Assembly (NCBI GenBank): GCA_963588055.1 | Contig: CAVAGB010000008.1 | Span: 11,622 to 75,621 of the forward strand | Reading direction: 5' to 3' | Length of the DNA stretch: 64,000 nt | Source of the DNA: Erysipelotrichaceae bacterium | GTDB taxonomy: Bacteria > Bacillota_I > Bacilli_A > RFN20 > CAG-826 | Shown here: piece after piece, positions 10,630 to 30,307 of the stretch | Layout of the letters: each line of letters starts with the position of its first letter | Numbering within the stretch: position 1 is the first letter of the stretch | Made by a program: the position numbers and the translations under genes | The notes under the pieces: model-generated | Databases searched by the model: none | What the model saw: the letters and a program-made list of their open reading frames with translations, nothing else | What the model was told of the DNA's origin: nothing

Positions 10630-10630
10630 G

Positions 10631-11938: not shown

Positions 11939-11952
11939 AGAACCTCCTTTTC

Positions 11953-12053: not shown

Positions 12054-12076
12054 TGTTTGCCTAGCTCTATTTGGGT

Positions 12077-12538
12077 TTATGCCCTGAAGAGGACGAGGAT
12101 GCTATCGACGATGAGCATCGCCCCGGCGACGTAGAAGAAGACGTTCATGAAGTCCCAGGCGGCCGCGCTGCCCGCGCCCATGAAGACGATGACCAAGCCC
12201 ACGAGGATGTTCACGACGTTGCTGAAGATCCCCTGCCTTCTGATGAGCCCGGAGATGCCATAGGCGATCATCATGACCCCGTTGACGAGGAAGGCGACCC
12301 AAGCGATCGTCCAAGCGAAGGAGATCATCAGGATGCCGAAGATGATCTCGACGATGCCGTAGAGGACGTTGTGGGTGAAGATGGACATCACCCCGAGGAC
12401 GACGGTGATCGCGCCGATCACCGTGACGATGATCCCCATGATCGTCTCCGCGCCATTGACTCCTCCGACGATCAGCATGATGCCGGCGACGAGCAGGGCA
12501 AGCGCATACCATACCCGTCCCATTGTAGATTTAGCCAT
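12077..12538 (-). CDS. small polytopic membrane protein (DUF308/HdeD-like, tentative)
   Basis: 153 aa with 5-6 hydrophobic helices. AAGGAGG SD 9 nt upstream. The overlapping plus-strand D/E/H-rich ORF is judged a shadow. Confidence 0.5.
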   Translation of the reverse strand: MAKSTMGRVWYALALLVAGIMLIVGGVNGAETIMGIIVTVIGAITVVLGVMSIFTHNVLYGIVEIIFGILMISFAWTIAWVAFLVNGVMMIAYGISGLIRRQGIFSNVVNILVGLVIVFMGAGSAAAWDFMNVFFYVAGAMLIVDSILVLFRA

Positions 12539-12622
12539 AGATATAAGGCCTCCTTAAAACGAGGGTATTCTAGACCAATTGGGGATGGATGGCTTCCCGA
12601 AATGCAAACAAGGTTGGACTAA

Positions 12623-13873: not shown

Positions 13874-13911
13874 TTCCAACTTCCTCCCTAGGAAGTATAC
13901 ATCAAAAAGGT

Positions 13912-13978
13912 GAAAATGCCATTTTAGGGTACTTTTTCTACCGGAAAATGAAATTTAGTACCCTAAAACGCCATTTTC
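13912..13978. repeat. 21-bp inverted repeat (long hairpin) between recN stop and ATPase paralog 4 start
   Basis: GAAAATGCCATTTTAGGGTAC (13912-32) against GTACCCTAAAACGCCATTTTC (13958-78), with 1 mismatch, 1 wobble and a 25-nt loop. U5 follows on the minus strand, so this may be the recN terminator and/or a leader element. Confidence 0.75.
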
Positions 13979-14024
13979 GCATCTTCAAGGCGCCCCGATG
14001 GAACAAAGAAAAAGGCGTATCGGA

Positions 14025-15689
14025 CTACCGGCCCTTCTCCATGACCATCTCTTTCGCGTATTCCCTTTGCTTCTCGGTGATCTTGCCGTTGGAGATGAGG
14101 TTGGCCACCGCGTCGATCTTCTCTTCCAAGCCCAGCTCATGGATGGAGGTGCTCGTCCTGCCGTCTTTGACGCTTTTCTCTATGAGGAGGGCGTGGTCAG
14201 AAAGGCAGGCGACCTGCGGGGCGTGGGTGATCGCGATGACCTGGGTGGATAAGGAGATCTCGTAAATCTTGTTCGCGACGGCTTTGCTGGCTTCGCCTGA
14301 GATCCCCGTGTCGATCTCGTCGAAGATGGCCGTGCCGACTTTGTTGGAAGAGAGGAAGATCGAATGGAAGGCAAGCATGATGCGGCTGGTCTCCCCTCCG
14401 GAGATGATCTTCTCCATCGGTTTGAGCCCCTCCCCCACATTGGTCTCCAAAAGGAACTGGACCTCGTCTATCCCGTCTTCTTTCAAAGAAACCGGATCCT
14501 TCTCTCCGAGGGAGAAAGAGATTTTGAACTCGTCGCGGAGCAAGAGGTCCTTGAGGTTCTTCTTCATGCTCTTCTCGATGAGGGAGGCCACTTGCTGCCT
14601 GATTTTGGAAAGATCAACCCCTCTTTCGTAAGCTTCCTCGAAAGTATTGTCGGCTTGAAGCCTTGCTTCCTCTAGATCCTCTTCGAAGGTCGAGCCTTTC
14701 CCTAGCATCGACTCGAGCTCCGCCTGATAGGAAATGAGCTCAGGGATGGATTTGCGGTACTTCCTCTCCAAAGAGGAGAGCTCGCTGTCCCTTTGCTCGA
14801 GCTCCTCTAGCCTCGCGGGATCGTAATCCAAGGAGGAGAAGAGGCCTTTCAAAGAGGAGAAGATGTCCTCCAATTCGTAATAGGCATCGTCTAAACGCTT
14901 GCTTGATTCCTGGTATTGGGATTGGAAAGAGACGAGTTTTGCGACGTTTTTGTTGAGATCGTAGAGTTTTTCGATGGCGTCCCCATGGACGATCGAAGAA
15001 GAATCCTGCACGAGGGAATAGATGGAGTCGTAGTTCCTGAGGAGGGAGATCTCGTTTTCGATCCTCTCTTGCTCCCCTTCCTCTAGCCCCATCCCTTTGA
15101 GCTCGTTGTATTGGTATTCGTAGAAGTCCCTTTCGGATTCAAGCTTCTCTTTCTTCGCCTTCAGTTCCTCGTAATGGGCTTGCTTCTGCCTGTAGGAAGA
15201 AAGGGACGTGCGGTAGCTCTCAAAATAAGACGCCACCATGGAGGGGCGGTAGGAATCGATGAGGGAGAGATAGTTCTCGGGATTGAGCAGTTTCATCGCG
15301 TCGAACTGCGAATGGATATTCGCCAGAAGAGGGGCAAGGCGAGAGAGGTCGCCCAAGGAGATCATCGTCCCATTGGCTTTGATGTAGCTTTTGGTTTTGC
15401 CGATGACCCTCTCGATGGTCAAAGATCCATCGAAGGGAACGTTAAGTGAGGATAAGAGGGCTTCCAACTTAGGGGAAGAGGCTTCGAATTCCCCGCGGAT
15501 CGTGGCTTTGCTCTCCCCTTGGCGGATGAGTTCGCTTGAAGCTCGCTGCCCCAAAAGCAAAGACAAGGAATCAATGACGAGGCTTTTGCCAGCGCCGGTC
15601 CCGCCCATCAAGACTGTAAAGCCGTTTTTGAAAACGATGTCTACGTTTTCTAGGATGGCAAGATTAACGATGGAAAGGCGTTTGAGCAT
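14025..15689 (-). CDS. recN: DNA repair protein RecN
   Basis: 554 aa. N-terminal GGTGAGKSLVIDSLSLLLGQRA, long coiled-coil middle, C-terminal ISGGETSRIMLA and FDEIDTGISG. Confidence 0.9.
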   Translation of the reverse strand: MLKRLSIVNLAILENVDIVFKNGFTVLMGGTGAGKSLVIDSLSLLLGQRASSELIRQGESKATIRGEFEASSPKLEALLSSLNVPFDGSLTIERVIGKTKSYIKANGTMISLGDLSRLAPLLANIHSQFDAMKLLNPENYLSLIDSYRPSMVASYFESYRTSLSSYRQKQAHYEELKAKKEKLESERDFYEYQYNELKGMGLEEGEQERIENEISLLRNYDSIYSLVQDSSSIVHGDAIEKLYDLNKNVAKLVSFQSQYQESSKRLDDAYYELEDIFSSLKGLFSSLDYDPARLEELEQRDSELSSLERKYRKSIPELISYQAELESMLGKGSTFEEDLEEARLQADNTFEEAYERGVDLSKIRQQVASLIEKSMKKNLKDLLLRDEFKISFSLGEKDPVSLKEDGIDEVQFLLETNVGEGLKPMEKIISGGETSRIMLAFHSIFLSSNKVGTAIFDEIDTGISGEASKAVANKIYEISLSTQVIAITHAPQVACLSDHALLIEKSVKDGRTSTSIHELGLEEKIDAVANLISNGKITEKQREYAKEMVMEKGR

Positions 15690-15894
15690 AGCGAGATCAT
15701 TATACGAGGGTTAGGAAACTCTTTGCTTCGAATTGGCCTGGTTTTCGGTATCAGCATTTCAAGGAAATCGTTCTTCTCTTTGTAAGATTTTTGCAGATAA
15801 AAACGGTTTTGCTGTTTTTATTTTTACTTCAAGTGTTATCTTTGCTATATTTAAGGTAATTAAACGCGCTTAATGTGGGTTTAAGACAAAATAT

Positions 15895-17061
15895 ATGAAA
15901 TTATTAAGAACCGTCGTCTCCGGATTGCCCTTATTTGAGAAGAGCTGCTGCATTGATTTCTTCGCTTCGCAGCGCGTCAGCGAAGAAAACGAGGAGCATA
16001 TGGGCCTTTTGCTAGCAAACGGAGGGGCGAAGTTCTATCAGAACAACGTCCTCTCTTTCGCCGGCATAAACGCGTCTGGGAAAACAACCGTCCTGAAGTT
16101 GATCTCATTCGTATGCTCCTTGCTTGCGAACGAGCCGTTAAACGGCAATGCCTATCCCGAGGTTTTCGATGGATTGAAAGACGACGAGGAGGCCGTTTTC
16201 GAGTCTTCTTTCCTAAGCGGGGCTTCCGTCTATCTGCTGCGAAGCGCCATAGCCAAAGAAAACGGCCGCTTGGTCATCAAAAGCGAATCCCTCAGAGAGA
16301 AAAACGCCAACAGGATAAAAACGAAGAAGGATCTTTTGGAATTGTCCGATTGCAAAATTGTGTTAGCAAGAGACGCGGACGAACCTTTCTTACTGGATGA
16401 TGTGAGCATCATGGTTGCGTTCAACAAAGCGAGCAAAGACGTCGTTTCCTTCTGCGATTTGCTCCATTACACGAATGCCAACGAGCTCAGCATCTCCTCG
16501 GATTGCCCAGGGGAATTGATCGCCTTCTTCGATCCGAGCATCGAGCATCTTCGCATCCGCCAGGAAGGCAAAGAAAGCCGCATCGGCTTGAAATTCAAAG
16601 GGAAAGAGGAAATCGTTTTGAGCCGACTTGCCGAATTGAATCGTTATCTCTCTTCCGGGACCATCAAAGGCATCAACGTCTTCTTAGCCGCCATAAGGAC
16701 TTTTCAAACCGGAGGATACCTCATCATCGATGAGCTTGAGAATCACTTCAATCACGAAATTGTGTCCACTTTGGTCAAGTTCTACATGGATAAGAAGGTG
16801 AACCCCCGCGGCGCGACTTTGCTTTTCTCCACCCATTACGCCGAACTGTTGGATGAGATGGCCAGGAACGACAACATCTACATCACTAAAAACGACGGAG
16901 GCATCAACGTTACGAAGCTCACATCCCTCCTAAAAAGGAACGACATCAAGAAAAGCGATGCTTACGAAAGCGGATATCTTGATGGCACCGCCCCTCAATA
17001 TGAGGCTTATATGGCCCTAAAAAAGGCCTTTGTGAAACAGGCCAAGGAAGGTGAGAGATGA
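15895..17061 (+). CDS. ABC-type ATPase of the AAA_15/AAA_21 class (AbiLi/RloA/AriA-like)
   Basis: Walker A GINASGKTT, signature-like LSSGTIKG, Walker B YLIIDELENHFNH, H-loop LLFSTHY. Stop overlaps the next ATG (ATGA). Confidence 0.7.
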   Translation: MKLLRTVVSGLPLFEKSCCIDFFASQRVSEENEEHMGLLLANGGAKFYQNNVLSFAGINASGKTTVLKLISFVCSLLANEPLNGNAYPEVFDGLKDDEEAVFESSFLSGASVYLLRSAIAKENGRLVIKSESLREKNANRIKTKKDLLELSDCKIVLARDADEPFLLDDVSIMVAFNKASKDVVSFCDLLHYTNANELSISSDCPGELIAFFDPSIEHLRIRQEGKESRIGLKFKGKEEIVLSRLAELNRYLSSGTIKGINVFLAAIRTFQTGGYLIIDELENHFNHEIVSTLVKFYMDKKVNPRGATLLFSTHYAELLDEMARNDNIYITKNDGGINVTKLTSLLKRNDIKKSDAYESGYLDGTAPQYEAYMALKKAFVKQAKEGER

Positions 17062-17580
17062 AGCTTACCAAATATGTCGCCTGCATCTACGAAGGCTCGG
17101 CGGAAAGGGCCATCCTCGAGCTGCTTTTAGAGGCGAATAAGCTGATTTTCACCTGGGACGATCTTCTTGAAGGTGGAGTTGATCAAATGCCGAAGCGCGA
17201 AGAACTTCGAAGCGCAATACCTGCGCAAAGGGTTTCGCGACAAAATTACCGTCGTACGAGTGCTCGACTCAAGGAACGAGGTCTTCAAATTGAGCAAAGC
17301 CTATGAGCACAAAGTCGGGGTGATAAACATCGTCACCGCCCCGGAGATAGAGATGCTGATCATCCTCAGCGAAGGAAAATACGCGGAATACAAAAAATCA
17401 GGGAAGAAGCCAAGCGATTTCTGTAAAGAAAGCCTGAGGTTAGGAGCGGTCAAAAATTACGCTTTCGTGAAAGGCTATTTCTCGAATATCGAACGTTTGA
17501 TGTTCTCAATCAACGAGTACCAACGAATTTCTAAGATCCCCCAAGGGGAATATACGCTCAAAGACATCATCAGGAAATAG
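17058..17580 (+). pseudogene. RloB/AbiLii-like small Toprim-type partner, split by a +1 frameshift near 17160-17175
   Basis: Frame A (17058-) gives MKLTKYVACIYEGSAERAILELLL...TWDDLLEG and then junk. Frame B (open from 17146) gives ELIKCRSAKNFEAQYL...VRVLDSRNE...IVTAPEIEMLIILSEGKY, where EG-x2-E and PEIEML resemble RloB motifs. Removing one G in GGTGGAG restores a roughly 174-aa protein. Confidence 0.55.
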
Positions 17581-17605
17581 ATTCGACCGTGCGGAAACGC
17601 ACCGA

Positions 17606-19396
17606 TCAAAGGCGCTTCAAGTATTCGGATACGTTGAGATACTGCACCCCATTCCTAATTGTCGTATCTTCGCCGCGATACAAAACGAACTTGCCGACGA
17701 TTCTGCCGAATGACCTCTCCACCTCTCGGCAGCGCTTCTCGTTGACGATGTGCCGATACTGATTGGGGTCCTGCGCTTTGCTGTGCTTAATCTCATAGAT
17801 ATTGCACTCATATGTGGACTTATCCATGGTGACCATATCGAACTCCCCATCAATGAACTCTAGTTTGAACACCTCGTGAGTCTTTTTCAGTTTTCGCATC
17901 GTCTCGTATAAAACAATCTCCTCCAGCATGCCACCTTTCACCCCATCTAAGATCTTCTCGCAGACATAATCCTTCTCTTTTTCGCTCAGGGTCGAAAAAA
18001 GCCTGTCTTTCTTCAAAGAGAAGACCAAAGCTTCGGCTTGGCAGTACCTCATGCCGGGTTGAGTAAAAAGGACGTTCTCATCGCCTTCGCTTTCTTTCGC
18101 CCCCAAATACCGCACAGGGCATTTTTTAATCAGCTCAAGCGCTTGGAGGTATTCTTTGATCTCCCGAACGTGCTCTTCGCTTAAAGGAACGCTTAGCCCG
18201 CTTTCGTTTTTGATTTCAAGAATCTCCATCAAACGCTTGACCACGGCCTCTTCGTCGATGCTCTCCAAGGCTTTCGATCTCAGATTTGGGTCTCTCTCCT
18301 TAAGGAGGTTTTTCTTCGCCAAGCCTAGGTCATGCGACCTGAAATCCTCCTCCAGCACGCTGACGAGGAAACGGTGATTAAGGTCTTCAATGATGCGGTT
18401 TATCGCGCTAGTGAGCTCCCCGGCCTCATAAAGCTCGGAAAGCTTTCTGAAATGCGAGCCTCCCTCAAAGCACTTGAGGCTGTGCTGGATGTTACCGCAG
18501 ATTGAAGTATCGATGTATCTCCGCGTGCTTTCGTCGTCGCGGAAAGAAATGGATTCGTCCTTCAGCTCCTCATCGTCGAAGTCGTTTTCTCCTGCCCTTA
18601 AAGTTCCCCCGTAACGAATGTAGGCATCGATGTCATCGGTCCCTAGAAGACGGGAATGCTCCGCGAAGGGAATCCAAGTCGTATGGATGAGGCAAGAACG
18701 GTCATAGAGCTCGTTTCTGCTCGCGAGATAAATGCCCAAGGAGTCAGTGCTGGAAAGGACGATTCTCATTCCCATCGCCGCGTAGATGTCAGAAAGGAGT
18801 GAGGAGGTGTCGATGAAATCATCCATCAAAGTGGCTTCGTCAATGAAGACGTATCTATATCCAAGCTGACTCAGCTTCTGAAGGTCGGAGTCGAGCATCG
18901 CCATCCTTTCTCCTCTTCTCATCTTGATATAGGCCGACTTGGCGAAATCAGAAGGTTTCATGTCCGCGATCGCCTGCAAAAGCAAAGTGGTCTTGCCCGT
19001 TCTACGGAGGCCATAGACGGAGCAGACCCTTGGCGAAGAGGGGCCGAAGATAAACTCTTGCAAGGCTTTGTAGCAATCGCGCTTTTGAAACGTTTTGGTA
19101 GGAAGGACCAATTGTTTCAGCGCAGCGCCGCGGATGACCTTCGTCTCAAACGTTTCCGAAAGTTCGACGGCGCAAGTTAATTTCAAGGCCTTCAATTCCT
19201 TTTCCAATTCCCTCCTCTTTTTCACATCCTTCTCAATCTGTTCGAAATCTTCGTCTGGGATGTAGCGGCTCTTCGTTTTCCCTTGCTCGCTCCATTGCAG
19301 ATAATGGCGAACCTTCCCGCTTATCTTCTTCTCCGAAATGCAGCCTTTCGGAAGGACCGCTATCTGCTTTCTCAGTTCCTCAATCGTTTTCTTCAT
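17606..19396 (-). CDS. large AAA-type ATPase, paralog 5 (N-terminal extension, C-terminal D..E-x-K-like motif)
   Basis: TTG 19423 replaced by ATG 19396 (MKKTIEEL). Walker A GLRRTGKTT, Walker B YVFIDEAT, C-terminal GEFDMVTMDKSTYECNIYEIKHS. Confidence 0.65.
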   Translation of the reverse strand: MKKTIEELRKQIAVLPKGCISEKKISGKVRHYLQWSEQGKTKSRYIPDEDFEQIEKDVKKRRELEKELKALKLTCAVELSETFETKVIRGAALKQLVLPTKTFQKRDCYKALQEFIFGPSSPRVCSVYGLRRTGKTTLLLQAIADMKPSDFAKSAYIKMRRGERMAMLDSDLQKLSQLGYRYVFIDEATLMDDFIDTSSLLSDIYAAMGMRIVLSSTDSLGIYLASRNELYDRSCLIHTTWIPFAEHSRLLGTDDIDAYIRYGGTLRAGENDFDDEELKDESISFRDDESTRRYIDTSICGNIQHSLKCFEGGSHFRKLSELYEAGELTSAINRIIEDLNHRFLVSVLEEDFRSHDLGLAKKNLLKERDPNLRSKALESIDEEAVVKRLMEILEIKNESGLSVPLSEEHVREIKEYLQALELIKKCPVRYLGAKESEGDENVLFTQPGMRYCQAEALVFSLKKDRLFSTLSEKEKDYVCEKILDGVKGGMLEEIVLYETMRKLKKTHEVFKLEFIDGEFDMVTMDKSTYECNIYEIKHSKAQDPNQYRHIVNEKRCREVERSFGRIVGKFVLYRGEDTTIRNGVQYLNVSEYLKRL

Positions 19397-19414
19397 TGCG
19401 TTCGTTATCTTTCT

Positions 19415-19444
19415 TATAACCAATTATAACCAATTATAACCAAT
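19415..19444. repeat. perfect 3 x 10-bp tandem repeat TATAACCAAT
   Basis: Read directly. Lies 19-48 nt upstream of ATG 19396 on the minus strand. Confidence 0.95.
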
Positions 19445-20413: not shown

Positions 20414-21238
20414 TTATTCGAAGATCAGAACGTCGTGGTAACTCGCGACGTCTTTTGCTTTCTGGCAGGAATCCCTGTCCCCCAGTTCAAGCGGCATGCC
20501 TTTATAAGGGGAAAGCCCATACCACGATTCAAGGCAAAAGAAGTCGTTTTTGCGGGGTTTTTGAGGCGTCCATAAAGCAAAATAGGGGCAAGAAGAGAGC
20601 AGGGTGATCCTTCTGCCTTTGCCATTTCTTAGGCTCACTTTTCCTTTGGGGTTAGTGACAACCAAGGTATCTCTTTTCTCGATGAAGGGGCGGTCGATCT
20701 TCCAATGGTTAGGATGAGGCCATGCAATGCGCCTTTCTACGATGCCATCCTCTAACTCAAGAAGGATCGTTCCCTCTTCGATGTCTAAGCAAGCATCGGA
20801 GAAGTCGCAGACGAAAGCGGGGTGCAACCCGTATTGGAAAGGCATCTCCTTATGGCTTAGGGAAAACACCTCCGCGTCACGGACGATCTTGTTCTCTTCC
20901 AAACGCGTGGTAACGCGAATCTCGCAGTCGAATGGATAGGCTTTGTCCGCAGGATGGCTCAAAGATAGGGTGATGCTTTCAGGGGTTTGTTCAAGGCGAA
21001 CGAACTCGGCGTAGCGAGCGAAGCCATGATGCCCTTCTATGTAATGGGAATGGCCGTCGATAGAGAAGGCGCGGTTGTCTCCGATGATGGGGAAAAGGAC
21101 GTGGTCGCTATACCCCCATTCGCCCTTCCCGTCGTAGAGGACGTCTTGATTCGCCTTTTTGAGATAGACCCGCTTAAGTTCGCAGCCGGTCGAGGCAATG
21201 TCCACTGCAAGGTCATCGTTTTCTATATGGAACATCAT
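20414..21238 (-). CDS. aldose 1-epimerase (galactose mutarotase) family protein
   Basis: ORF-track ORF trimmed to ATGATG at 21238, with GGAGTGA SD. Motifs LFPIIG...HGFAR...YGLHPAF. Confidence 0.65.
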   Translation of the reverse strand: MMFHIENDDLAVDIASTGCELKRVYLKKANQDVLYDGKGEWGYSDHVLFPIIGDNRAFSIDGHSHYIEGHHGFARYAEFVRLEQTPESITLSLSHPADKAYPFDCEIRVTTRLEENKIVRDAEVFSLSHKEMPFQYGLHPAFVCDFSDACLDIEEGTILLELEDGIVERRIAWPHPNHWKIDRPFIEKRDTLVVTNPKGKVSLRNGKGRRITLLSSCPYFALWTPQKPRKNDFFCLESWYGLSPYKGMPLELGDRDSCQKAKDVASYHDVLIFE

Positions 21239-21243
21239 GGGGC

Positions 21244-21948
21244 TCACTCCTTTTTGAAATCCTCTTGGACCTTCTTCTCCACTTCCGAGCATATCACCTG
21301 CAAGGAGCAGGAATGGCAGTCCATCTTCACCTTGTTCGTGAGGTGGTCGAGGGCTTTGGTGATGTTCTCGCATTTTGTGACAATCTCCCTTAGCCCGGCG
21401 TAATCGTAATCGTCAAGGGTCGCGAAGATGACCTTCACGTTCTTGACGAAAGGCAGCTCCTTATGCTTCTTGATGACGTAGCTGCCCAGTTTGGAGAAAT
21501 CGAATCCGTCTTTCTTCAATGCGTCTTTGGAAACCAAAAGGCTCTCTTTCTTGTTGAAGACGGATTCTCTCACCATCACCCCGCTGTAGGCGAAATGGTA
21601 TTTCACGTAATCGAATTTGCGGATGGAATTATAGAGGGCGTTGCCGGAGCCTATTTGAGTGGTATCCACGCTAGCGAGGGTGATTCGCGCGTAATTTGCG
21701 GGCTTTTTGATGGAAGGGATATCCTCTCCAAGCAAAACGATCCCATCCTCGAAAGGCGCGTCCAAAAGCAAATCAAGGGCGATTCCTTGATAAGGATTCG
21801 CCCCTAATTCGAAGGCCTTGTCGCTAGCGAAGATGAATTGGTTCGGGTTCTCTAGGAACTCACTCTTCAGCTCGACATCGAGCCTTTTTGCTTCGTATTT
21901 CTTGTTGATCTCGTCCACTCTCGCGGCGAGGTCATCGAAGATGAACAT
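21244..21948 (-). CDS. uncharacterised protein with C-terminal 4-Cys motif; possible acetyl-CoA-synthase-beta-like fragment
   Basis: 234 aa. The block FAYSGVMVRES...LLVSKDALKKDGFDF...VKNVKVIFAT recalls, from memory, the GVMH-GQR...SK-A-KGF block of CdhC/AcsB. C-terminus is C-x19-C-x2-C-x6-C (MDCHSCSLQVIC). Needs an HMM check. Confidence 0.35.
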   Translation of the reverse strand: MFIFDDLAARVDEINKKYEAKRLDVELKSEFLENPNQFIFASDKAFELGANPYQGIALDLLLDAPFEDGIVLLGEDIPSIKKPANYARITLASVDTTQIGSGNALYNSIRKFDYVKYHFAYSGVMVRESVFNKKESLLVSKDALKKDGFDFSKLGSYVIKKHKELPFVKNVKVIFATLDDYDYAGLREIVTKCENITKALDHLTNKVKMDCHSCSLQVICSEVEKKVQEDFKKE

Positions 21949-21950
21949 AC

Positions 21951-22169
21951 CTAGATCTTGCGGTTTCTCTCAATCTTGTCGTAATGCTTCTGCAGCACCC
22001 CTTCCAGCGAAGAGGTGAGCTTCATGTCGAGGTTGAAGAAATAGACGATGAAGAGAAGGCCGAAGAGGGCGATGATGGCCCCGACGACCGTGCAGACGAT
22101 GCTGACCCAAAGCCAAACCCCGAGAGAGGGGAAGAGGGTCCAACTGAGAACAATCAAAGCGGTGCCCAT
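21951..22169 (-). CDS. 72-aa two-TM membrane peptide
   Basis: Abuts both neighbours with 0-2 nt gaps. Hydrophobic MGTALIVLSWTLFPSLGVWLWVSIVCTVVGAIIALFGLLFIVYFF. Confidence 0.5.
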   Translation of the reverse strand: MGTALIVLSWTLFPSLGVWLWVSIVCTVVGAIIALFGLLFIVYFFNLDMKLTSSLEGVLQKHYDKIERNRKI

Positions 22170-22970
22170 TTATCTGCCCTCCGCGAGGCCTTTTTGCCTG
22201 GCAAACTCAGCAGCGCCCAAAGCGCCCATCAGCTGCGGATCGATAGAGAGGTTGACTACCTTAAGGTGCAAGACCTTCTCGATCGCGTCTTTTAAGCCCG
22301 CGTTCTTCGCGCAGCCGCCCGTGAGGGTGATGCTGTCGGTCGCGCCGGCTTTCTTGGCCATGACGAAGCAGCGTTTGGCCACCGAGAACTCGATGCCCGC
22401 GGCGATCTCGTCCATCGGCTTGCCTTCTCCGACGAGGGAGATGACCTCCGATTCGGCGAAGACGGTGCACTGAGCGGTGATCGGGATGATGTTCTTCGCG
22501 CTGAGGGAGAGATTGGAGAAGGTATCAAGATCCATCTCGAAGGCTCTGGCCATCGCCTCGAAGAACCTGCCGGTTCCAGCGGCGCATTTGTCGTTCATCG
22601 CGAAGTTGAGGACGGTGCCGTCTTTATCCACGGCGATCCCTTTGACGTCCTGCCCGCCGATGTCGATGATGGCTTTGACGCTAGGGTCGGTGACGTGGAC
22701 GCCCATCGCGTGGCAAGAGATCTCCGAGATGTTCTCGTCCGCGAAGGGGACTTTGTTCCTGCCATACCCCGTGCCGACGAGGTAGGAAAGGTCTTTGGGG
22801 TCCTTGAGCTCAGGGACCTGGGCGATCGCCTGGTCCAAGGACTCTTGGGCGCTTAAGACGGAGTTGATGCGGCTTCTGAGGGTCACGTTGGCGACCATCT
22901 TGCCGTTTTCGTCGATAATCACGCACTTCGTGTAAGTGCTGCCGGAATCGCATCCACCAAAATACTTCAT
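22170..22970 (-). CDS. HgdC/BcrAD_BadFG-type ATP-dependent activase (CoA-substrate-specific enzyme activase)
   Basis: GCDSGSTYTKCVII, NDKCAAGTGRF, TAQCTVFAESEV, LTGGCAKN. Confidence 0.85.
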   Translation of the reverse strand: MKYFGGCDSGSTYTKCVIIDENGKMVANVTLRSRINSVLSAQESLDQAIAQVPELKDPKDLSYLVGTGYGRNKVPFADENISEISCHAMGVHVTDPSVKAIIDIGGQDVKGIAVDKDGTVLNFAMNDKCAAGTGRFFEAMARAFEMDLDTFSNLSLSAKNIIPITAQCTVFAESEVISLVGEGKPMDEIAAGIEFSVAKRCFVMAKKAGATDSITLTGGCAKNAGLKDAIEKVLHLKVVNLSIDPQLMGALGAAEFARQKGLAEGR

Positions 22971-22985
22971 AATTCTTTTATCTCC

Positions 22986-24533
22986 TTACCATGATTTGGC
23001 ATCATCAATCACTTCTAGGCTCGGGTCGACGGGCTCTTCCCGCATGACCGAGCGCATATATCTATTCACGTCGTCTCTGATTGATTGCTTGGAGATGACG
23101 CGGGGATCCATCAGGTCGTGGTTGACCCAGATGAGCTTGATTCCATGCTCCCTGGCCCTTTCCTCGAACATACCGTGCATGCCGGCGAGGGCTTTGCAGG
23201 AGATATGCTCCCAAAGGATGACGATGTCGGCGTGGTATTCCTCGCAGAACCTCCAGAGGTCATCAAGGAGGACTTCGTAACCGCCGTGGGTCCTATTCCT
23301 CATGATCATCTCCTGGTAGAGCTTGGCGATGTCGTAGATCGCCTGCTCTGGATCATCCTCTGAGATCTCATCGAAATAGACGAGGGAGAGCATATCCACG
23401 AGAGGGAGGATTCCCCAGCAGTTCTGCAGCCAGGGGAGGAAATCGGTGTAGAACTGCGACTGAACGCCCCAGATGATGGCCCTGTGGCGGGTCTCTTTGC
23501 AGACTTTGGCCTTCCTCTTGAAGGCTTTCTCGGCGAGTTTGGTGATCTTCCTGTCGGCTTTGACGAAGTCGTCGCTTCTTCCGGCGACGGCCATGTAGGT
23601 GGTCTCGGCGTAGAGGGCGAGGTTCGCGCCGAAGACCTGGGGATTGTCGGTCTTCGACATCTCCATCCAGGATTTGCGGAGCCTATTCTCCTCATTGAAG
23701 CGCTTGGCGCACTTGAAGTAATGGTCCCAGTCCCATTTCTGGCCGGTCTTCTCTTCGATGAATTTGATGGCGTTCCTGACTTCCTGGGCCGCGTAATCCT
23801 GCACGCCTTCTTCGGTGTGCCTAAGCGGAGCGGCGATTTGGAAGGTCGGGATGCCGAATTCCTCGTATTTCTTGCTCATGATGCCGTTGCCCATCAGCGA
23901 GCCGTCGCAAGTGGTGTTGCATTGGATCGCGCAGGCTCCATAAATCGGCATGTCCTCATCCACGGCCGCGCCGGCTTCGGCGGCAGGCATTGGGCAGACA
24001 TCTCCCGGAATGCCCATCTCCTGAAGGACGTCGAGGTAATGGGTGACCGCGCCGCCGTTAAGAAGGACGGAGACGTAGATGGCCGCGGTTTCCCAGCTGA
24101 CCGCGTAAAGATTGGGGAAGCCGCACATGATGTGGAACATCTCGTTCTCGTCCAGCACGACGACTTTCTTGGAGAATTTCTTGTTGTTGCCGCATCTTTT
24201 GTCCGCTTTGAAGACCCTGCCGAGGAGCTGAGCGACGTCCAAAGCGACGAGGTCGTATTCGGTGTGGGCGATGCGGAGGGCCTCTTTCCTAAGCCCCGTG
24301 GTGTGCTTATCGATCATCATCGGGACGGCGAGGTAGTTGCACATCCAGCGGTAGCGGAAGAATCCTTTGAGATTGGTGGGCTTGACGATGAACTTCGCAA
24401 GCATCCACATGATCTTGAGCCAGCAGCGGAAATCGTAGAGGGTGTCGATCAGACCCCTCCATTCCCTTCTCTTCCTGACCCTTTTGCCGTTATAGAGCTT
24501 GCCTAACGGCTCGGAACCGACTTTGCTTCCCAT
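22986..24533 (-). CDS. 2-hydroxyacyl-CoA dehydratase / benzoyl-CoA reductase family subunit (large)
   Basis: 515 aa, Cys-rich (CPMPAAEAG, ACAIQCNTTCDG), C-terminal HISCKALAG block. Start overlaps the upstream stop by 1 nt. Confidence 0.7.
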   Translation of the reverse strand: MGSKVGSEPLGKLYNGKRVRKRREWRGLIDTLYDFRCWLKIMWMLAKFIVKPTNLKGFFRYRWMCNYLAVPMMIDKHTTGLRKEALRIAHTEYDLVALDVAQLLGRVFKADKRCGNNKKFSKKVVVLDENEMFHIMCGFPNLYAVSWETAAIYVSVLLNGGAVTHYLDVLQEMGIPGDVCPMPAAEAGAAVDEDMPIYGACAIQCNTTCDGSLMGNGIMSKKYEEFGIPTFQIAAPLRHTEEGVQDYAAQEVRNAIKFIEEKTGQKWDWDHYFKCAKRFNEENRLRKSWMEMSKTDNPQVFGANLALYAETTYMAVAGRSDDFVKADRKITKLAEKAFKRKAKVCKETRHRAIIWGVQSQFYTDFLPWLQNCWGILPLVDMLSLVYFDEISEDDPEQAIYDIAKLYQEMIMRNRTHGGYEVLLDDLWRFCEEYHADIVILWEHISCKALAGMHGMFEERAREHGIKLIWVNHDLMDPRVISKQSIRDDVNRYMRSVMREEPVDPSLEVIDDAKSW

Positions 24534-25723
24534 TATTTGTTGCCTCCTTGGATCTTCTTGATCTCGATGCTCTCGACGAAGGCCTGGACCCTGGTGCGGA
24601 TCTGGCCTGAGGTGCCCACCGCGTAGGGGCGGTCGATCGAGAGGACGGGGTAATCGTAATCGTCCCTCAGCATATGGGTGCCGGTCATGCGCTCATAGGC
24701 CCAGGGGTCGCAGAACTTCATCTGCTCGTAGATGATGCCGTCGGCCTTGTACTCTTTCGCCAAAGCGTTCACGTATTCCTTCCTCCTCTTGAATTTGGGG
24801 AGGTTCATGTGGCGAGGGCACATGCACGAATGCATGTATTGGGCGCAGATCTGGGTGAGGACGTCTTCCTTGTCGTTGAGGACGATCTCCTGCCTGCCGG
24901 GCAAAGAGCCGAAGCAATAGCGATCGGCGACGACCCTCGCGCCGCTCTCCTCGATGAGCTTGATCATGTCGACGTCGTCGACCTCCGATCCCACGACGAG
25001 GACCCTCGCGCGGAATTTCTTCTTCTCATCGGGCACCCTGTTCTTCACTTCCTCGAGGGTCTCCTCGAGCTTGTCTAGCAATAGGTGATGGGGGCAGACG
25101 TAGGTGCACATCGTGATGATGTGGAACTCGTATCCGGTGATGCGGGGGTTGTCCTCTTTCCTGAATTCGCCTAACTCGGTGATGAGGCGGCAGAGCTTGT
25201 TGTGCTCCTCCACCGCTTCTTTGATGGCTTTGTCGGAGGTATCGATGCCGAAGTGCTCATGCAGGGGATCGAGGATCTTCTTACGGCATTCCCTCACGTA
25301 GAGGTCAAGCCCGTTGTCGTCGTCTTTCATCGGGACCTCAAGGTACTGGTAGAAGAAGCCTTCGTTAGGGATGGTCTTGAGCAGTTCCATGTTCTCGACG
25401 CAGCGGTTGATCATCGTGCAGCCATCGGGGGTGAGGAGGCAATCGAGGAACTGATAGCCGCCTTCGATGGCCCTTTCTAGCAATGCGCGTGAATACTCGC
25501 AAAGGAAGGAGGTCATGTAATAGGTGCCCATTTCCATCGAGCCGGTGCGGGGCGCCCTTAGGCGCGCGGAGAAGCAGCCTTTGAGGTTGCAAAGGACCTC
25601 GGGGATCTGGTAGCAGGTGCTGCCGACGCACTTAAGCCCGTCTTCCCTGGCCTTCCTTACTAGCTCGTTGTTGGCGTCTTCTAGTAATTTCTCGAAGTAG
25701 TACAAATGCTTTAGGTCTTTCAT
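24533..25723 (-). CDS. 2-hydroxyacyl-CoA dehydratase family subunit (small)
   Basis: 396 aa. CVGSTCYQIPE, TPDGCTMINRC, RYCFGS, MKFCDPWAYE. Confidence 0.7.
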   Translation of the reverse strand: MKDLKHLYYFEKLLEDANNELVRKAREDGLKCVGSTCYQIPEVLCNLKGCFSARLRAPRTGSMEMGTYYMTSFLCEYSRALLERAIEGGYQFLDCLLTPDGCTMINRCVENMELLKTIPNEGFFYQYLEVPMKDDDNGLDLYVRECRKKILDPLHEHFGIDTSDKAIKEAVEEHNKLCRLITELGEFRKEDNPRITGYEFHIITMCTYVCPHHLLLDKLEETLEEVKNRVPDEKKKFRARVLVVGSEVDDVDMIKLIEESGARVVADRYCFGSLPGRQEIVLNDKEDVLTQICAQYMHSCMCPRHMNLPKFKRRKEYVNALAKEYKADGIIYEQMKFCDPWAYERMTGTHMLRDDYDYPVLSIDRPYAVGTSGQIRTRVQAFVESIEIKKIQGGNK

Positions 25724-25735
25724 GAAGCCTCCTTT

Positions 25736-26497
25736 TTATAGAATTCCTAATTTGGTTAACGCTTGCTTGGTCCCTTCTACGACGCTCGCGCTTGGGTCGA
25801 GGGCAAACACCGATTTGCCTTCGACGTCGGAGAGCATCATCTCCTTGTCGTCAGGGATCACGCTTAAGAGGTTAAGCGAAGCAAGGTCGAGTTTGCTGAC
25901 GTCCACGTTCTCGTTCACGCGGTTGAGGATCAAGCCGTCGGTCTCATACATCACGAGCTCTCCGGCGACTTTCTTGATGGTCTTCGTGACTTCGATGCCT
26001 TTCTTCGAGGCGTCGCTAACCAAGACCAGATGGGTCACTTTCTCCATCACCCTGCGGTTCACCTGCTCGATTCCCGCTTCCCCGTCGATGACGACGTAGT
26101 CGAAGCTGTTCGCGAGGAGGCTGATGACTTCCTTGAGGTAGGCGTTCACTTTGCAGTAGCATCCGCTGGCCTCCGGGCGCCCGATCGCGAGGAAGGAGAT
26201 GTTCTCTATCTCCACTAAGGCGTCGAATATCTGGTATTTGGCCTCGGAGAGGATCTCCAGGGCGGCTTTGGATTCTCCGCTTTCTACGTGCTCTATGAAG
26301 AGCTTGCGGATGTCGTCGACCGTCGAGCCCGAATCCACCCCCAATGCGGTGGCTAGCCCAATGGCTGGGTCGGCGTCGATCGCTAGGATCTTTTTGTCCG
26401 GGTGCGCTTCATGGAGAAGACGCACGCTCAAGGCGGAGATTGAGGTTTTGCCCACGCCCCCTTTTCCGCAGAAGGCGAGGATGATTGGCTTTCCCAT
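25736..26497 (-). CDS. cooC: CooC-type Ni-insertion ATPase (MinD/ParA class)
   Basis: ILAFCGKGGVGKTSIS deviant Walker A, AIDADP, and GRPEASGCYCKVNAYL carrying the CooC-type C-x-C metal motif. Confidence 0.75.
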   Translation of the reverse strand: MGKPIILAFCGKGGVGKTSISALSVRLLHEAHPDKKILAIDADPAIGLATALGVDSGSTVDDIRKLFIEHVESGESKAALEILSEAKYQIFDALVEIENISFLAIGRPEASGCYCKVNAYLKEVISLLANSFDYVVIDGEAGIEQVNRRVMEKVTHLVLVSDASKKGIEVTKTIKKVAGELVMYETDGLILNRVNENVDVSKLDLASLNLLSVIPDDKEMMLSDVEGKSVFALDPSASVVEGTKQALTKLGIL

Positions 26498-26498
26498 C

Positions 26499-26693
26499 TT
26501 ATTTCCCTTCCGTGTCGACGATCACGAACCCATCGACTAGGTTCGCCTGGGCGAGTCTGCCTTTGACTTCCATTTTCCTCTCCATGAGGTCGGTCAAAGT
26601 CAAAAGGCCTTCGCTGGATTCGATGCGCATCACGTTGCGCATGAGGACGTTCTTCTCGTCCTTCTTGTTTTTATAGACGATGGATAGGCACAT
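26499..26693 (-). CDS. cooT: CooT-family Ni-binding protein
   Basis: 64 aa starting MC (Cys2). Pattern MCLSIVYKNKKDEKNVLMRNVMRIE..G.LTLTDLMERKMEVKGRLAQANLVDGFVIV matches the CooT fold family as remembered. Confidence 0.7.
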   Translation of the reverse strand: MCLSIVYKNKKDEKNVLMRNVMRIESSEGLLTLTDLMERKMEVKGRLAQANLVDGFVIVDTEGK

Positions 26694-26697
26694 AAGG

Positions 26698-26904
26698 TTA
26701 TTTGGATAGCTCCTTAAGGGCCTCGCTTAAGGCGGCGTTGCCTTTCTCGAAGTCGCTTATCGCGTCTTTGACTTTCTTATAAGCGGCTTCGTCTACCCCT
26801 TTCAAAGAGGAGGCGAGCTCCTCGAGTTCCCCGTTATGGTGCTCGTTGTGGTGGATCATGTAGTTTATGAGAGCAGTCAGCTCCTTGATGTCGTGGGCTT
26901 CCAT
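26698..26904 (-). CDS. 68-aa helical protein with His cluster (HHNEHH), putative metal binder
   Basis: MEAHDIKELTALINYMIHHNEHHNGELEEL... No SD seen. First gene of the operon. A CooJ-like role is inference only. Confidence 0.45.
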   Translation of the reverse strand: MEAHDIKELTALINYMIHHNEHHNGELEELASSLKGVDEAAYKKVKDAISDFEKGNAALSEALKELSK

Positions 26905-26911
26905 ATCGGTA

Positions 26912-26931
26912 ATCGATAAATATTTATTGAT
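26912..26931. promoter_or_regulatory. 20-bp near-perfect palindrome ATCGATAAATATTTATTGAT, candidate operator
   Basis: 9/10 symmetric half-sites, 8-27 nt upstream of ATG 26904. A TetR gene lies immediately upstream on the same strand. Confidence 0.5.
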
Positions 26932-27072
26932 ATAAAATACACCAAAGTGCCCATCATATCAATCAAATCTTGCCGAATTTACATGCAGGGAGGCGCTTTT
27001 CGCGGAGGAATTCCCGAAACGGCGCAAGCAAAGGCGGAGAGGCAAAAGAAAAGAGGGTTCACGCCCCTCTCT

Positions 27073-27678
27073 TCAATTGCCCTTCTTCGCGTCCGTTTGC
27101 CATTTCGGATAAACGAGCTGCAGAATGAGCGAGGATATCTGCTCTGCCTCTTCCTTGCATCCCCCTCCCACCCAATTTCCGACCAAGGCGACGATGCCGT
27201 TTAGGTAGTAGGACGCCACATAGGCCCTCTCCCATTCGGGGAGGCCGTAGATCTCCATGATTGGAGATAGGTAGTTATGGAAGATGAAGTCGTATTCTTC
27301 TTTGGAGCGGAAGAGCTCAGGCTTGCTCTTGGCGAGGACAAAGACCTTCCTGTTCTCCTTGACGAAGGAGAGGTAGGGCTTCATGTAACGCTCGGAGATG
27401 AGAGACACGCCGTTCCTCTCCCCTTTGGATATCGCCTTGTCGAGCTCCCCGTTATCCCCAAAGGACATATAGAAACCCTTGAGGACGCGGTTAACCGTCT
27501 CCTTTAATAGATCGTCCATGCTCTCGTAATGGAGATAGAAGGTCGAGCGGTTCACCCCGGCCTTCTTGCAGAGCTCTTTGACGGAGATATAGGCGTAGCC
27601 TTTCTTGTCCAGCAATTCGATGAGGGCCTCGTCCGTCAGCTCCGCGGTGTGGAAGTATTTACTCTCGTGTTTGTCCAT
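27073..27678 (-). CDS. TetR/AcrR-family transcriptional regulator
   Basis: HTH ISVKELCKKAGVNRSTFYLHYESMDDLL. ATG 27678 preferred to TTG 27699. Confidence 0.8.
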   Translation of the reverse strand: MDKHESKYFHTAELTDEALIELLDKKGYAYISVKELCKKAGVNRSTFYLHYESMDDLLKETVNRVLKGFYMSFGDNGELDKAISKGERNGVSLISERYMKPYLSFVKENRKVFVLAKSKPELFRSKEEYDFIFHNYLSPIMEIYGLPEWERAYVASYYLNGIVALVGNWVGGGCKEEAEQISSLILQLVYPKWQTDAKKGN

Positions 27679-28027
27679 CGCTGGCGATTTCGTTGGCAAG
27701 GGTGATTATATCAAAAGCGTACTTCTCTTTTCCTTTGGCGAGCATCTTCTTATATATAAGGTAATTGAGCCCCATCAAGGCGATGGCGATGACGCCGATC
27801 GCGATGCCGACGATTTTCCAGACGACTCCGATATCCCCAAAGACCTCCATCGAAAGGCACATGCTGAAGCCTAAGGCCAAGGCGGCGAACGAACCGAAAC
27901 TATAGGCGAAGACGATCGCGGGTAATTTGGCTTTGCGGTCGAGCTTTCTCAAAGCGATCACTTTCGAATCGTCTTTCTTCGCATACTCCTTGGCGATTGA
28001 TTCAGCGTAGATTTTGTCGGTATCCAT
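27659..28027 (-). CDS. small membrane protein (2 TM), co-transcribed with TetR
   Basis: ATG 28027 with AGGAGG SD replaces the track start 28141. MDTDKIYAESIAKEYAKKDD... followed by two hydrophobic helices. Overlaps the TetR start by 20 nt. Confidence 0.5.
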   Translation of the reverse strand: MDTDKIYAESIAKEYAKKDDSKVIALRKLDRKAKLPAIVFAYSFGSFAALALGFSMCLSMEVFGDIGVVWKIVGIAIGVIAIALMGLNYLIYKKMLAKGKEKYAFDIITLANEIASDGQTRE

Positions 28028-29103: not shown

Positions 29104-29197
29104 TGATAATGGGTTTTTGCGGAGATTTTAAAAACGCCTTCCCCTTAAAGTGGGCTTCAAGGTTACAATGTTTCTAACTAGAAAAAGGAGCAACGCC

Positions 29198-30307
29198 ATG
29201 GACAGAATCAAAAAGAACTTCGGCTTCGGCTGCATGCGCCTGCCGATGAAGGGCGACAAAGTCGATTTAGAAGAAACGAAAAGGATGGTCGATGCCTTCT
29301 TGGATGCTGGCTTCAATTATTTCGACACGGCCCATGGCTACATCTCCGGCCAAAGCGAGACCGCCTTGAAGGAATGCCTCACCTCAAGGTATCCTCGTGA
29401 CCGTTATATTTTGACCAACAAACTCTCCTCCCCTTATTTCCACAAGGAGGAAGACATCCGACCCTTCTTCGAGGAACAGCTGAAGGCCTGCGGGGTGGAC
29501 TATTTCGATTTCTACCTCATGCACGCGCAGGGGTCTTCAAACTATGAGCAATACCAATCCTGCCACGCTTACGAGGTCGGGAAGAAACTGAAGGAAGAGG
29601 GGAAGATCCGCCACCTAGGCATCTCCTTCCACGACACCGCCGAATTCCTTGAGAGGATTCTCCTCGATCATCCCGAGGTGGAGGTCGTGCAGATCCAGTT
29701 CAACTACCTCGATTACGACGACCCGTCCGTCCAAAGCAAAAAGGTCTATGAGGTTTGCCGCAAATACAACAAACCCGTCATCGTGATGGAACCCGTCAAA
29801 GGAGGCAATCTCGTCAACTTGCCAGAGGAAGCAAAAGCAATCTTTGATGGTCTCCATGGTGGTAGCCCCGCCTCCTATGCCCTTCGCTTCGCCGCAGGCT
29901 TCCCCGGGATGATGATGGTGCTATCAGGTATGAGCAACCTCACCCAGATGGAAGACAACATCTCCTTCATGAAGGATTTCAAGAAGCTAGACCAGAAAGA
30001 AGAGGAAGCCATAGAAACGGTCCGCAAGATCTTCCTCTCAAAGCACTTGATCCCCTGCACCGCCTGCCGCTATTGCGTCGAAGGCTGCCCCAAGCACATC
30101 TCGATTCCCGATCTTTTCGCCACCATGAACGCGAAAGAGGCCTATCACGACTGGAACGCGGACTATTACTACCATTACGTCCACACGAAGGGCAAAGGGA
30201 AAGCCTCCGAGTGCCTCAAATGCGGGAAGTGCGAGAAGATATGCCCTCAGCACCTGCCTATCCGCGAGCTTTTGGTGAAAGTGGCGGAGACCTTCGAAAG
30301 CAAATAA
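29198..30307 (+). CDS. aldo/keto reductase with C-terminal 4Fe-4S ferredoxin-type domain (COG1453 type)
   Basis: ATG 29198 with AAAGGAG SD. FGFGCMRLP, FDTAHGY and C-terminal CTACRYCVEGCP...CLKCGKCEKICP. Confidence 0.8.
   Translation: MDRIKKNFGFGCMRLPMKGDKVDLEETKRMVDAFLDAGFNYFDTAHGYISGQSETALKECLTSRYPRDRYILTNKLSSPYFHKEEDIRPFFEEQLKACGVDYFDFYLMHAQGSSNYEQYQSCHAYEVGKKLKEEGKIRHLGISFHDTAEFLERILLDHPEVEVVQIQFNYLDYDDPSVQSKKVYEVCRKYNKPVIVMEPVKGGNLVNLPEEAKAIFDGLHGGSPASYALRFAAGFPGMMMVLSGMSNLTQMEDNISFMKDFKKLDQKEEEAIETVRKIFLSKHLIPCTACRYCVEGCPKHISIPDLFATMNAKEAYHDWNADYYYHYVHTKGKGKASECLKCGKCEKICPQHLPIRELLVKVAETFESK

Follow-up and report, generated by a model that had tools for sequence, protein, structure and literature searches.

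Nine genes on the minus strand of a contig from an Erysipelotrichaceae bacterium (GenBank assembly GCA_963588055.1, contig CAVAGB010000008.1) were analyzed for their family membership, their arrangement and the conservation of that arrangement in other genomes. The window, that is, the whole 64-kb stretch of DNA under analysis, supplied the open reading frames (ORFs), and the translations of the ORFs in the operon were searched against Pfam and NCBIfam and, for several of them, against PDB sequences. All nine ORFs were found where a preliminary description of the DNA had placed them, from 26904 down to 20414 with spacings of -1 to 15 nt. Six of them make up a conserved module that encodes a CooC-type ATPase, two subunits of the HGD-D superfamily, an ATP-dependent activase, a small membrane peptide and a stand-alone homologue of the middle domain of acetyl-CoA synthase (ACS). 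In their order along the operon, the nine genes are as follows.

26698..26904, minus strand: His-rich helical protein, 68 aa (IHHNEHHNG), assigned to DUF8180 (PF26551) through the precomputed annotation of the identical gene of locus L089
26499..26693, minus strand: CooT-type protein, 64 aa, starting Met-Cys (Pfam PF10133, E=1.2e-16)
25736..26497, minus strand: CooC-type P-loop ATPase, 253 aa, core gene, with the deviant Walker A motif GKGGVGKT (residues 11-18) and C113-Y-C115
24533..25723, minus strand: HGD-D beta-type subunit, 396 aa, core gene (Pfam HGD-D, E=3e-88, 297 bits)
22986..24533, minus strand: HGD-D alpha-type (catalytic-type) subunit, 515 aa, core gene (Pfam HGD-D, E=4e-42, 146 bits)
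22170..22970, minus strand: HgdC/BcrAD-type ATP-dependent activase (archerase), 266 aa, core gene (BcrAD_BadFG, E=1e-56, 193 bits)
21951..22169, minus strand: small membrane peptide, 72 aa, core gene, with a transmembrane helix, an invariant FNLDMK and a basic YDK...R(D/N)(K/R)K tail
21244..21948, minus strand: stand-alone ACS middle-domain homologue, 234 aa, core gene, with an invariant D210-C211-x2-C214-x5-C220
20414..21241, minus strand: aldose-1-epimerase-fold protein, about 275 aa (Pfam Aldose_epim, E=2e-15)

The successive gaps between these genes are 4, 1, 12, -1, 15, 0, 2 and 2 nt. The last value assumes Met45 (21241) as the start of the epimerase; with the start of the longest ORF (21373), there would be a 130-nt overlap with the 234-aa gene. 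Translation almost certainly begins at Met45 or Met46 (21241 or 21238), giving a protein of about 274 aa as in the gene call of L089. The 68-aa helical protein with its HHNEHH cluster at the head of the operon, the 72-aa hydrophobic membrane peptide in seventh place and the aldose-1-epimerase-fold protein as ninth gene were all present as previously described.

One genome per species was scanned for relatives of the 234-aa protein, hereafter the ACS-like protein, and at least 405 species-level genomes were found to encode it at a confirmed locus. Eighty of these loci were fetched, and the window proteins were run against them by tblastn. In 64 of the 80 loci, order and strand were unchanged for the five large core genes, which encode CooC, the beta and alpha subunits, the activase and the ACS-like protein; 13 of the remaining loci were cut by contig ends and three were exceptions. 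This five-gene arrangement is far beyond chance. A small ORF with the motifs of the 72-aa peptide occurred between the activase and ACS-like genes in 72 loci (68 distinct sequences). By comparison, CooT was present in 26 loci and DUF8180 in 24, all of them within the clade to which the window is closest, and the epimerase gene in three. Since the accessory genes vary by clade, the conserved unit has six genes and not nine: CooC, beta, alpha, activase, membrane peptide and ACS-like protein. Of the nine genes described earlier, CooT and the His-rich protein are confined to one clade, and the epimerase lies outside the conserved module. The association of CooC with HGD-D genes that had been singled out is strongly conserved across gene neighbourhoods, and that of CooT belongs to one clade only.

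The beta and alpha genes were confirmed by Pfam as the two HGD-D-family subunits that the preliminary description had recognized. For the beta subunit, the best PDB sequence match was BzdN (8s02_B, E=8e-23), ahead of HadC and of the double-cubane cluster protein (DCCP). The [8Fe-9S] cluster of BzdN is bound by Cys36/73/100/263/293/327 (PMC11971306), and C37, C75, C102, C270, C302 and C338 of the beta subunit aligned with all six of these ligands and were 98-100% conserved in 66 orthologues, whereas in that alignment C37 and C270 had no counterpart in HadC. The spacing of the Cys residues also fits the 7-Cys motif of DCCP (PMC7317905). The beta subunit is thus predicted from its ligand pattern to carry an [8Fe-9S] double cubane, and the likeness to double-cubane proteins remarked on before holds for this subunit, which keeps all six ligands of BzdN and DCCP. 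C178, C293 and H201 are further invariant residues specific to the family. The subunit scored 146 bits against a cutoff of 350 for NCBIfam double_cubane (NF040772), and 86 against 454 for the BzdN model TIGR03190.

The alpha subunit is much more divergent in sequence (DCCP, E=1.5e-6). Its AlphaFold2 model, with a predicted local distance difference test score (pLDDT) of 83.5, matched HadB (3o3m_A) best, together with BzdO (8s02_A/C) and MbdO (9g87_A), at E values of about 1e-12 to 1e-13, compared with 5e-10 to 6e-8 for the beta-type chains BzdN, MbdN and HadC. C180, C209 and C446 are invariant in 66 orthologues; C180 and C209 aligned with C3 and C4 of DCCP, and C446 with a Cys of MbdO. On this alignment, the three residues would be the counterpart of the three-Cys catalytic cubane of BzdO (Cys95/128/380). 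The other invariant residues are C201, C372, H77, H90 and H350, and C372 lies in an N-C-W-G context resembling that of the C5 ligand of beta, BzdN and DCCP. Alpha thus keeps the DCCP ligands C3, C4, C7 and probably C5 (C372), and has lost C1 and C6. An invariant Ser212, three positions after C209, sits by spacing where BzdO has His131, and the N terminus is extended by a conserved stretch of about 120-150 aa. The NCBIfam double_cubane score of alpha was 46 bits against the cutoff of 350. The equivalog scores for HadB/C, BzdN, BcrB/C and double_cubane were all far below their cutoffs, and by sequence the alpha/beta pair is a separate branch of the HGD-D superfamily. Two over-long alpha homologues, P0084 (690 aa) and P0176 (633 aa), were considered as domain fusions and rejected; both hold exact internal duplications of 120-170 residues and were regarded as assembly artefacts.

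The activase scored 213 bits for the acyl-CoA dehydratase activase model TIGR00241 (cutoff 125), in agreement with its earlier assignment to the HgdC/BcrAD type. It is encoded by a single gene, as in the dehydratases and DCCP-R, and is not of the two-gene benzoyl-CoA reductase type; its score for the BzdQ model TIGR03192 was 161 against a cutoff of 380. In 75 orthologues, 185 of its 266 residues were at least 97% conserved, including C129 and C168, and identity stayed at 81-97% across families, where alpha drops to 40% and the ACS-like protein to 34%. The 72-aa membrane peptide encoded next to it had no family match in local Pfam and NCBIfam.

The ACS-like protein by itself gave no match in Pfam, NCBIfam or PDB sequences, and its kinship was detected through a family profile and a fold search. 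Pfam CdhC (PF03598) is found in its more distant relatives, at 33-46% identity, two of which bear the name "carbon monoxide dehydrogenase". A profile built from 20 family members matched Moorella ACS (1mjg/1oao) at residues 332-484 with E of about 1e-5, a region which corresponds to the middle domain in the Moorella structure. The same profile matched an N-terminally truncated ACS (3git, residues 23-174) and archaeal CdhC (9c0s, residues 22-176), and 11 of the 20 members matched Pfam CdhC individually. The AlphaFold2 model (pLDDT 89; predicted template-modelling score 0.85) had 22 significant Foldseek matches in the PDB, all of them ACS or CdhC, with probability 1.0 and template-modelling scores normalized to the query of 0.43-0.61; the first match outside ACS had E=0.17. 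The resemblance to ACS noted in the preliminary description is accordingly real by profile, by individual CdhC matches and by fold. ACS consists of three domains, with the A-cluster in the C-terminal one (PMC5298270). It is the middle domain, and not the A-cluster domain, that the profile alignment and the predicted model identify as the counterpart of the 234-aa protein.

The C-terminal end of this protein had been given as C-x19-C-x2-C-x6-C; the actual arrangement is C193-x17-C211-x2-C214-x5-C220. In 80 orthologues, only D210, C211, C214 and C220 were invariant, and C193 was kept in 17%. The protein ends 14 residues after C220, so that there is no room for an A-cluster domain. Judged by offset, C211 and C214 would lie close to Cys506 and Cys509 of ACS, a correspondence of position only; homology of this three-Cys (Cys3) tail with the ACS residues was considered and is unsupported, the profile of the tail having no ACS match. 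At 50% identity, an exhaustive profile search with the whole family gave 633 clusters with E values of 1e-3 or lower, 387 of them at 1e-10 or lower, and the best 150 of the 633 clusters were all small stand-alone proteins, mostly of 220-260 aa. The middle domain of ACS has been linked to CoA binding. In the profile alignment an invariant R127 stands opposite ACS Trp418, and the ACS-like protein may possibly bind a CoA-type ligand.

For the CooC-type ATPase, Pfam and NCBIfam returned only generic MinD/ArsA matches. The best PDB match was CooC1 of Carboxydothermus (3kje, E=5e-15) over the full length (residues 7-231), against 1e-7 for MinD, which places the protein in the SIMIBI/MinD-type fold. 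C113-Y-C115 (GCYC) aligned column for column with C112-Y-C114 of CooC1, whose two Cys bind metal at the dimer interface, and the P-loop and both Cys of the C-x-C motif were invariant (100%) in 67 CooC orthologues. The CooT-type protein scored 61.2 bits for PF10133 (cutoff 27), covering profile positions 1-59 of 60, and its Cys2 was 100% conserved in 21 orthologues; it had no match among PDB sequences. In characterised CooT, Cys2 is the nickel ligand, and no role besides nickel binding is known (PMC6006190). Both calls, made earlier from GKGGVGKT and GCYC and from the Met-Cys start, are specific and not generic, since CooC1 is the best full-length PDB match with the C-x-C on its metal site and CooT exceeds its Pfam cutoff. 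The 68-aa DUF8180 protein gave nothing significant in local Pfam and NCBIfam; it has five His, of which only H19 and H23 were invariant in 22 orthologues, together with E8 and E26.

Two of the loci link the chaperones to the ACS-like protein. In L030 (Ruminococcaceae UBA3751), DUF8180, CooT, CooC and ACS-like genes lie between genes for phosphotransferase system enzyme I and a histidine kinase, with neither HGD-D nor activase genes, and L029 has DUF8180, CooT, CooC, activase and ACS-like genes and no HGD-D genes. The chaperones therefore track the ACS-like protein, as they stay with it where the HGD-D genes are missing. This pairing parallels that of AcsF and ACS, a relation cited in PMC10134865. 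Judged from the chaperones, the metal handled by CooC is most likely nickel. In recent surveys of CODH (carbon monoxide dehydrogenase) gene contexts, CooT and CooC are mentioned only beside CODH, and an earlier survey found 26 of 111 CooT-bearing proteomes to be without CODH.

The preliminary description had noted the absence of CODH and CoA-transferase from the window. No cooS/Prismane/CODH, full ACS or CoA-transferase was found by Pfam among the 30 window ORFs outside the operon, which included all those of at least 330 aa, so no adjacent cooS or acs locus within the 64 kb accounts for the chaperones. No CODH-sized gene recurred within 10 kb of the module in the 80 loci, and CODH, ACS and CoA-transferase were not among the recurrent neighbour clusters; the singleton large ORFs of the loci were scanned in part. 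Full-text literature searches gave no description of the operon, of an association of CooC/CooT with HGD-D proteins, or of DUF8180.

Among the closest known systems is BzdNO (PDB 8S02; PMC11971306). Both have two HGD-D subunits, which form a heterodimer in BzdNO and presumably here, and the six-Cys [8Fe-9S] electron-storage subunit, the three-Cys open-iron [4Fe-4S] subunit and the ASKHA-type ATPases of BzdNO have predicted counterparts in the module. Unlike BzdNO, the present pair shows only about 14-20% identity to it (with the low BzdN score given above) and is accompanied by one HgdC-like activase gene, where BzdPQ (BcrAD) has two different ATPase subunits. Alpha has Ser212 where, by spacing, BzdO has His131 of its His131/Glu65/Trp46 catalytic set, and it also carries the additional N-terminal 120-150 aa and a further pair of invariant Cys. 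The bzd clusters contain no equivalent of CooC, of the ACS-like subunit or of the membrane peptide, and the hosts are gut fermenters, whereas those of bzd are aromatic degraders. The combination of alpha/beta HGD-D subunits with a single homodimeric activase gene is shared with HadBC/HadI and HgdAB/HgdC; in contrast to HadC, which holds a [4Fe-4S] cluster, the beta subunit has the six-Cys double-cubane motif, and unlike dehydratase operons, this one encodes neither a CoA-transferase nor a 2-hydroxyacid dehydrogenase. The NCBIfam HadB and HadC scores were 27 and 88 against cutoffs of 750 and 700.

With DCCP and DCCP-R (PDB 6ENO, 7YYL; PMC7317905), the module shares the six-Cys [8Fe-9S] motif in beta and an ATP-dependent reductase partner, and small or hard-to-reduce compounds are candidate substrates, as for DCCP. 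DCCP is a homodimer from one gene, whereas alpha and beta come from two and alpha is without the C1 and C6 ligands, and DCCP loci have not been reported with CooC, CooT or ACS-like genes. AcsB/CdhC have in common with the module the middle-domain fold and a CooC-type ATPase encoded alongside, as AcsF is with ACS. The 234-aa protein differs from them by having neither the N-terminal domain nor the C-terminal A-cluster domain, and no CODH, corrinoid protein or methyltransferase is nearby. The CooC/CooT/CooJ set of Rhodospirillum rubrum (PMC6006190) likewise unites CooC (C-x-C, deviant Walker A), CooT (Cys2) and a small His protein in one operon; here, however, there is no cooS, and the apparent client is the HGD-D enzyme or the ACS-like protein. 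CooJ of R. rubrum is a protein of about 12.6 kDa with a C-terminal tail of 16 His, and the 68-aa helical DUF8180 protein, with its five His and HxxxH, was rejected as a CooJ.

The hosts of the module are Lachnospiraceae, Acutalibacteraceae, Oscillospiraceae and other Clostridia, with a few metagenome-assembled genomes (MAGs) of Treponemataceae/Spirochaetales, and include two cultured isolates of a rumen collection (GCA_000702145.1 and GCA_900109005.1; alpha subunit SEJ00874.1). Just upstream of the operon, the cultured rumen isolates (L085/L086, 3980-5483) have an oxidative-stress set of Fur, rubrerythrin and desulfoferrodoxin genes. Clostridia-type copies of the operon, nearly identical to one another, also occur in many 'cleanbin' MAGs (L007, L008, L011, L012, L020, L027 and others) that have Parasutterella, Alistipes, Sodaliphilus, Bacteroides or Slackia in their titles; these taxonomic labels seem unreliable.

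The only recurrent large neighbour gene in the 80 loci encodes an IsrA-like Fer4/Pyr_redox Fe-S flavoprotein of about 955 aa. In eight loci of a CooT-less Lachnospiraceae clade it begins about 20 nt after the ACS-like gene (for example, L001 10766-14263 and L087 13302-16166), and it holds the same place in a very common gut species (L087/L088). In four loci, a HypA gene comes next. For the IsrA family, a putative isoprene reductase, co-occurrence with HypA and HypB has been reported and nickel binding has been proposed (PMC10134865). HypA in L001 was considered as a chaperone of the module and rejected as direct evidence, because it follows the IsrA-like gene there and the IsrA family itself is reported to co-occur with HypA. 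An aldo-keto reductase fused to a 2x[4Fe-4S] ferredoxin domain (AKR-Fer4) is encoded in the window on the opposite strand, 2.2 kb upstream of the operon (29150-30307, plus strand). Such a gene is near the module in two of the 80 loci, and in L004 a lone ACS-like gene is followed after 15 nt by an AKR-Fer4 gene (10756-11919) that is 37% identical to the window copy, with no HGD-D genes. In 24 Acutalibacteraceae loci, a gene for a 192-aa class I S-adenosylmethionine-dependent methyltransferase adjoins the ACS-like gene (for example, L042 10591-11169); it occurs on either strand, and its linkage to the module is uncertain.

Two further features adjoin the operon of the window on its upstream side.

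26934..26962, minus strand: promoter-like site TTGATA-17-TATTTT, upstream of the first gene, identified by consensus match alone
27073..27699, minus strand: TetR-family regulator (TetR_N and TetR_C_8), a separate transcription unit directly upstream

A terminator-like hairpin at 27074-27048, 3' of the TetR gene and also recognized by consensus match alone, sets the promoter-like site apart from that gene. With this hairpin after TetR and the promoter-like site before the first gene, the nine genes plausibly form one transcript; the epimerase would probably be co-transcribed as a local add-on, yet it lies outside the conserved module. A near-perfect palindrome (ATCGATAAAT/ATTTATTGAT) at 26912-26931 flanks the promoter-like site, and an 11-nt inverted repeat (26923-26933/26956-26966) brackets it. 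Both inverted repeats could be an operator for the adjoining TetR protein, a possible local regulator of the operon whose gene is beside the module in one of the 80 loci. On the other side, bordering the operon, five paralogous AAA_14/DUF4143 ATPase genes are located at 6439-7803 (plus), 7998-9419 (plus), 10631-11938 (minus), 12623-13879 (minus) and 17606-19423 (minus), interspersed with an SMC_N/AAA_15 gene (14025-15689, minus) and an AAA_21/AbiEii-like gene (15895-17061, plus), and the region 6439-19423 looks like a defence or mobile island. Other ORFs scanned in the window include sugar-metabolism genes, a P-type ATPase and NrdD.

From the homology with BzdNO, 2-hydroxyacyl-CoA dehydratases and DCCP, electrons would pass from the activase to beta and on to alpha. 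A cellular donor would reduce the [4Fe-4S] cluster of the activase, and this HgdC-like protein of homodimer type would use ATP hydrolysis to drive electrons singly into the [8Fe-9S] double cubane of beta. The double cubane would store the low-potential electron and hand it to the open-iron three-Cys [4Fe-4S] cluster of alpha, at which the substrate would be reduced or dehydrated by radical chemistry. The subunits may form a complex tethered by the membrane peptide. CooC, helped in this clade by CooT and DUF8180, would mature a metal site, most likely of nickel, which would most probably be located on the ACS-like subunit or at its interface, as AcsF serves ACS; this subunit may carry or complete the site through its Cys3 tail. 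Substrate chemistry of the CO/acetyl-CoA type of ACS is not expected, because the A-cluster domain is absent.

Gene content, synteny, conservation of the cluster ligands, the fold assignments and the CooC/CooT signatures point to an undescribed, activase-driven, multi-subunit HGD-D enzyme of the BzdNO type with a nickel-matured accessory site, a reading to which we give about an even chance. The preliminary description had arrived at an uncharacterised ATP-dependent low-potential reductase working with a nickel-containing partner. The reductase agrees with the gene content, the predicted double cubane and the synteny, and nickel itself enters through the chaperones. The findings that could have overturned that proposal turned out in its favour: the chaperones are specific, ACS similarity and synteny are both present, and no cooS or acs locus is adjacent. 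Several observations nevertheless weigh against a nickel-matured site. The ACS-like protein has neither the Cys-Gly-Cys nickel ligands nor the A-cluster domain of ACS, the profile of its last 59 residues (the Cys3 tail) found no ACS among PDB sequences, and the tail was modelled with low confidence. CooT and DUF8180 occur in only about one-third of the loci, other clades carrying CooC alone, and the two loci in which the chaperones accompany the ACS-like protein without HGD-D genes are both MAG contigs. There was no nickel transporter among the neighbour clusters of the 80 loci, and neither the region upstream of the operon nor seven related loci gave a NiCo riboswitch or any other Rfam match. 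The C-x-C site of CooC1, moreover, binds zinc as well as nickel. A bolder version, which we hold tentatively and consider clearly less probable, is a new class of nickel-dependent enzyme with a Ni or Ni-Fe-S site on the ACS-derived Cys3 subunit or in the alpha pocket, charged through the double cubane. In the pocket, the site would take the place of the lost second cubane, with C372 and C201 and with His77/90/350. The module would in that case be a gut-bacterial ATP-driven nickel reductase whose substrate is probably hard to reduce.

A rival reading is a nickel-independent, all-iron reductase like BzdNO or DCCP, in which CooC and the ACS-like protein would be an assembly factor, a scaffold or an electron relay, and CooT and DUF8180 would serve another metal or be dispensable. 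CooC is universal in the module while CooT and DUF8180 are not, no nickel transporter or riboswitch is linked to it, MinD/Mrp-type ATPases akin to CooC mature Fe-S proteins, and the extra invariant Cys (C178 and C293 of beta, C201 and C372 of alpha) could, with the Cys3 tail, build added Fe-S sites. The C-x-C motif, however, fits the metal site of CooC1 specifically and neither the CxxC of Mrp/Nbp35 nor the ligand pattern of NifH, CooT is known for binding nickel alone (PMC6006190), and BzdNO and DCCP were both made in E. coli without a dedicated maturase (PMC11971306; PMC7317905); an all-iron enzyme is for us somewhat unlikely. We see even less prospect of the module being an ATP-driven machine for the reductive activation or maturation of another enzyme, such as the IsrA-like protein, AKR-ferredoxin or a distant CODH/ACS, in the manner of RACo or the activation complex of methyl-coenzyme M reductase. 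The IsrA-like gene close behind the ACS-like gene, often with HypA next, the lone ACS-like gene of L004 with its AKR-Fer4 neighbour and the relative of that neighbour in the window, and the activase adjoining the ACS-like gene in L029 would suit such a role, but no client is conserved across clades (IsrA-like in eight and AKR-Fer4 in two of the 80 loci), no cooS or acs recurs nearby, and alpha retains the catalytic-type architecture of HadB and BzdO. Pfam HGD-D, the HgdC-type activase and the database name '2-hydroxyacyl-CoA dehydratase family protein' of orthologues could suggest a plain 2-hydroxyacyl-CoA dehydratase, serving amino-acid fermentation, that happens to adjoin remnants of a CODH maturation set. 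This is scarcely credible and is effectively refuted by the synteny, as the conserved order includes CooC and the ACS-like gene; the six cluster Cys of beta, unlike HadC, the low equivalog scores, and the lack of a CoA-transferase from the scanned window ORFs and from the recurrent neighbours of the loci also speak against it.

Every part of the system belongs to a known superfamily, and together they describe an archerase-driven HGD-D enzyme with three unprecedented conserved components: a CooC-type maturase, a stand-alone ACS middle domain and a membrane peptide. The list of nickel enzymes is short and looks closed, and CooC and CooT have so far been tied to CODH/ACS only. If the interpretation is right, CooC-type chaperones would gain a new client, the ACS middle domain would be an independent and widespread family (the 633 clusters at 50% identity), and a third double-cubane architecture would join those of DCCP and BzdNO. 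The two cultured carriers make direct testing possible. Human-gut and rumen Clostridia commonly carry the module, and the unusual conservation of its activase points to an important redox reaction in gut anaerobes.

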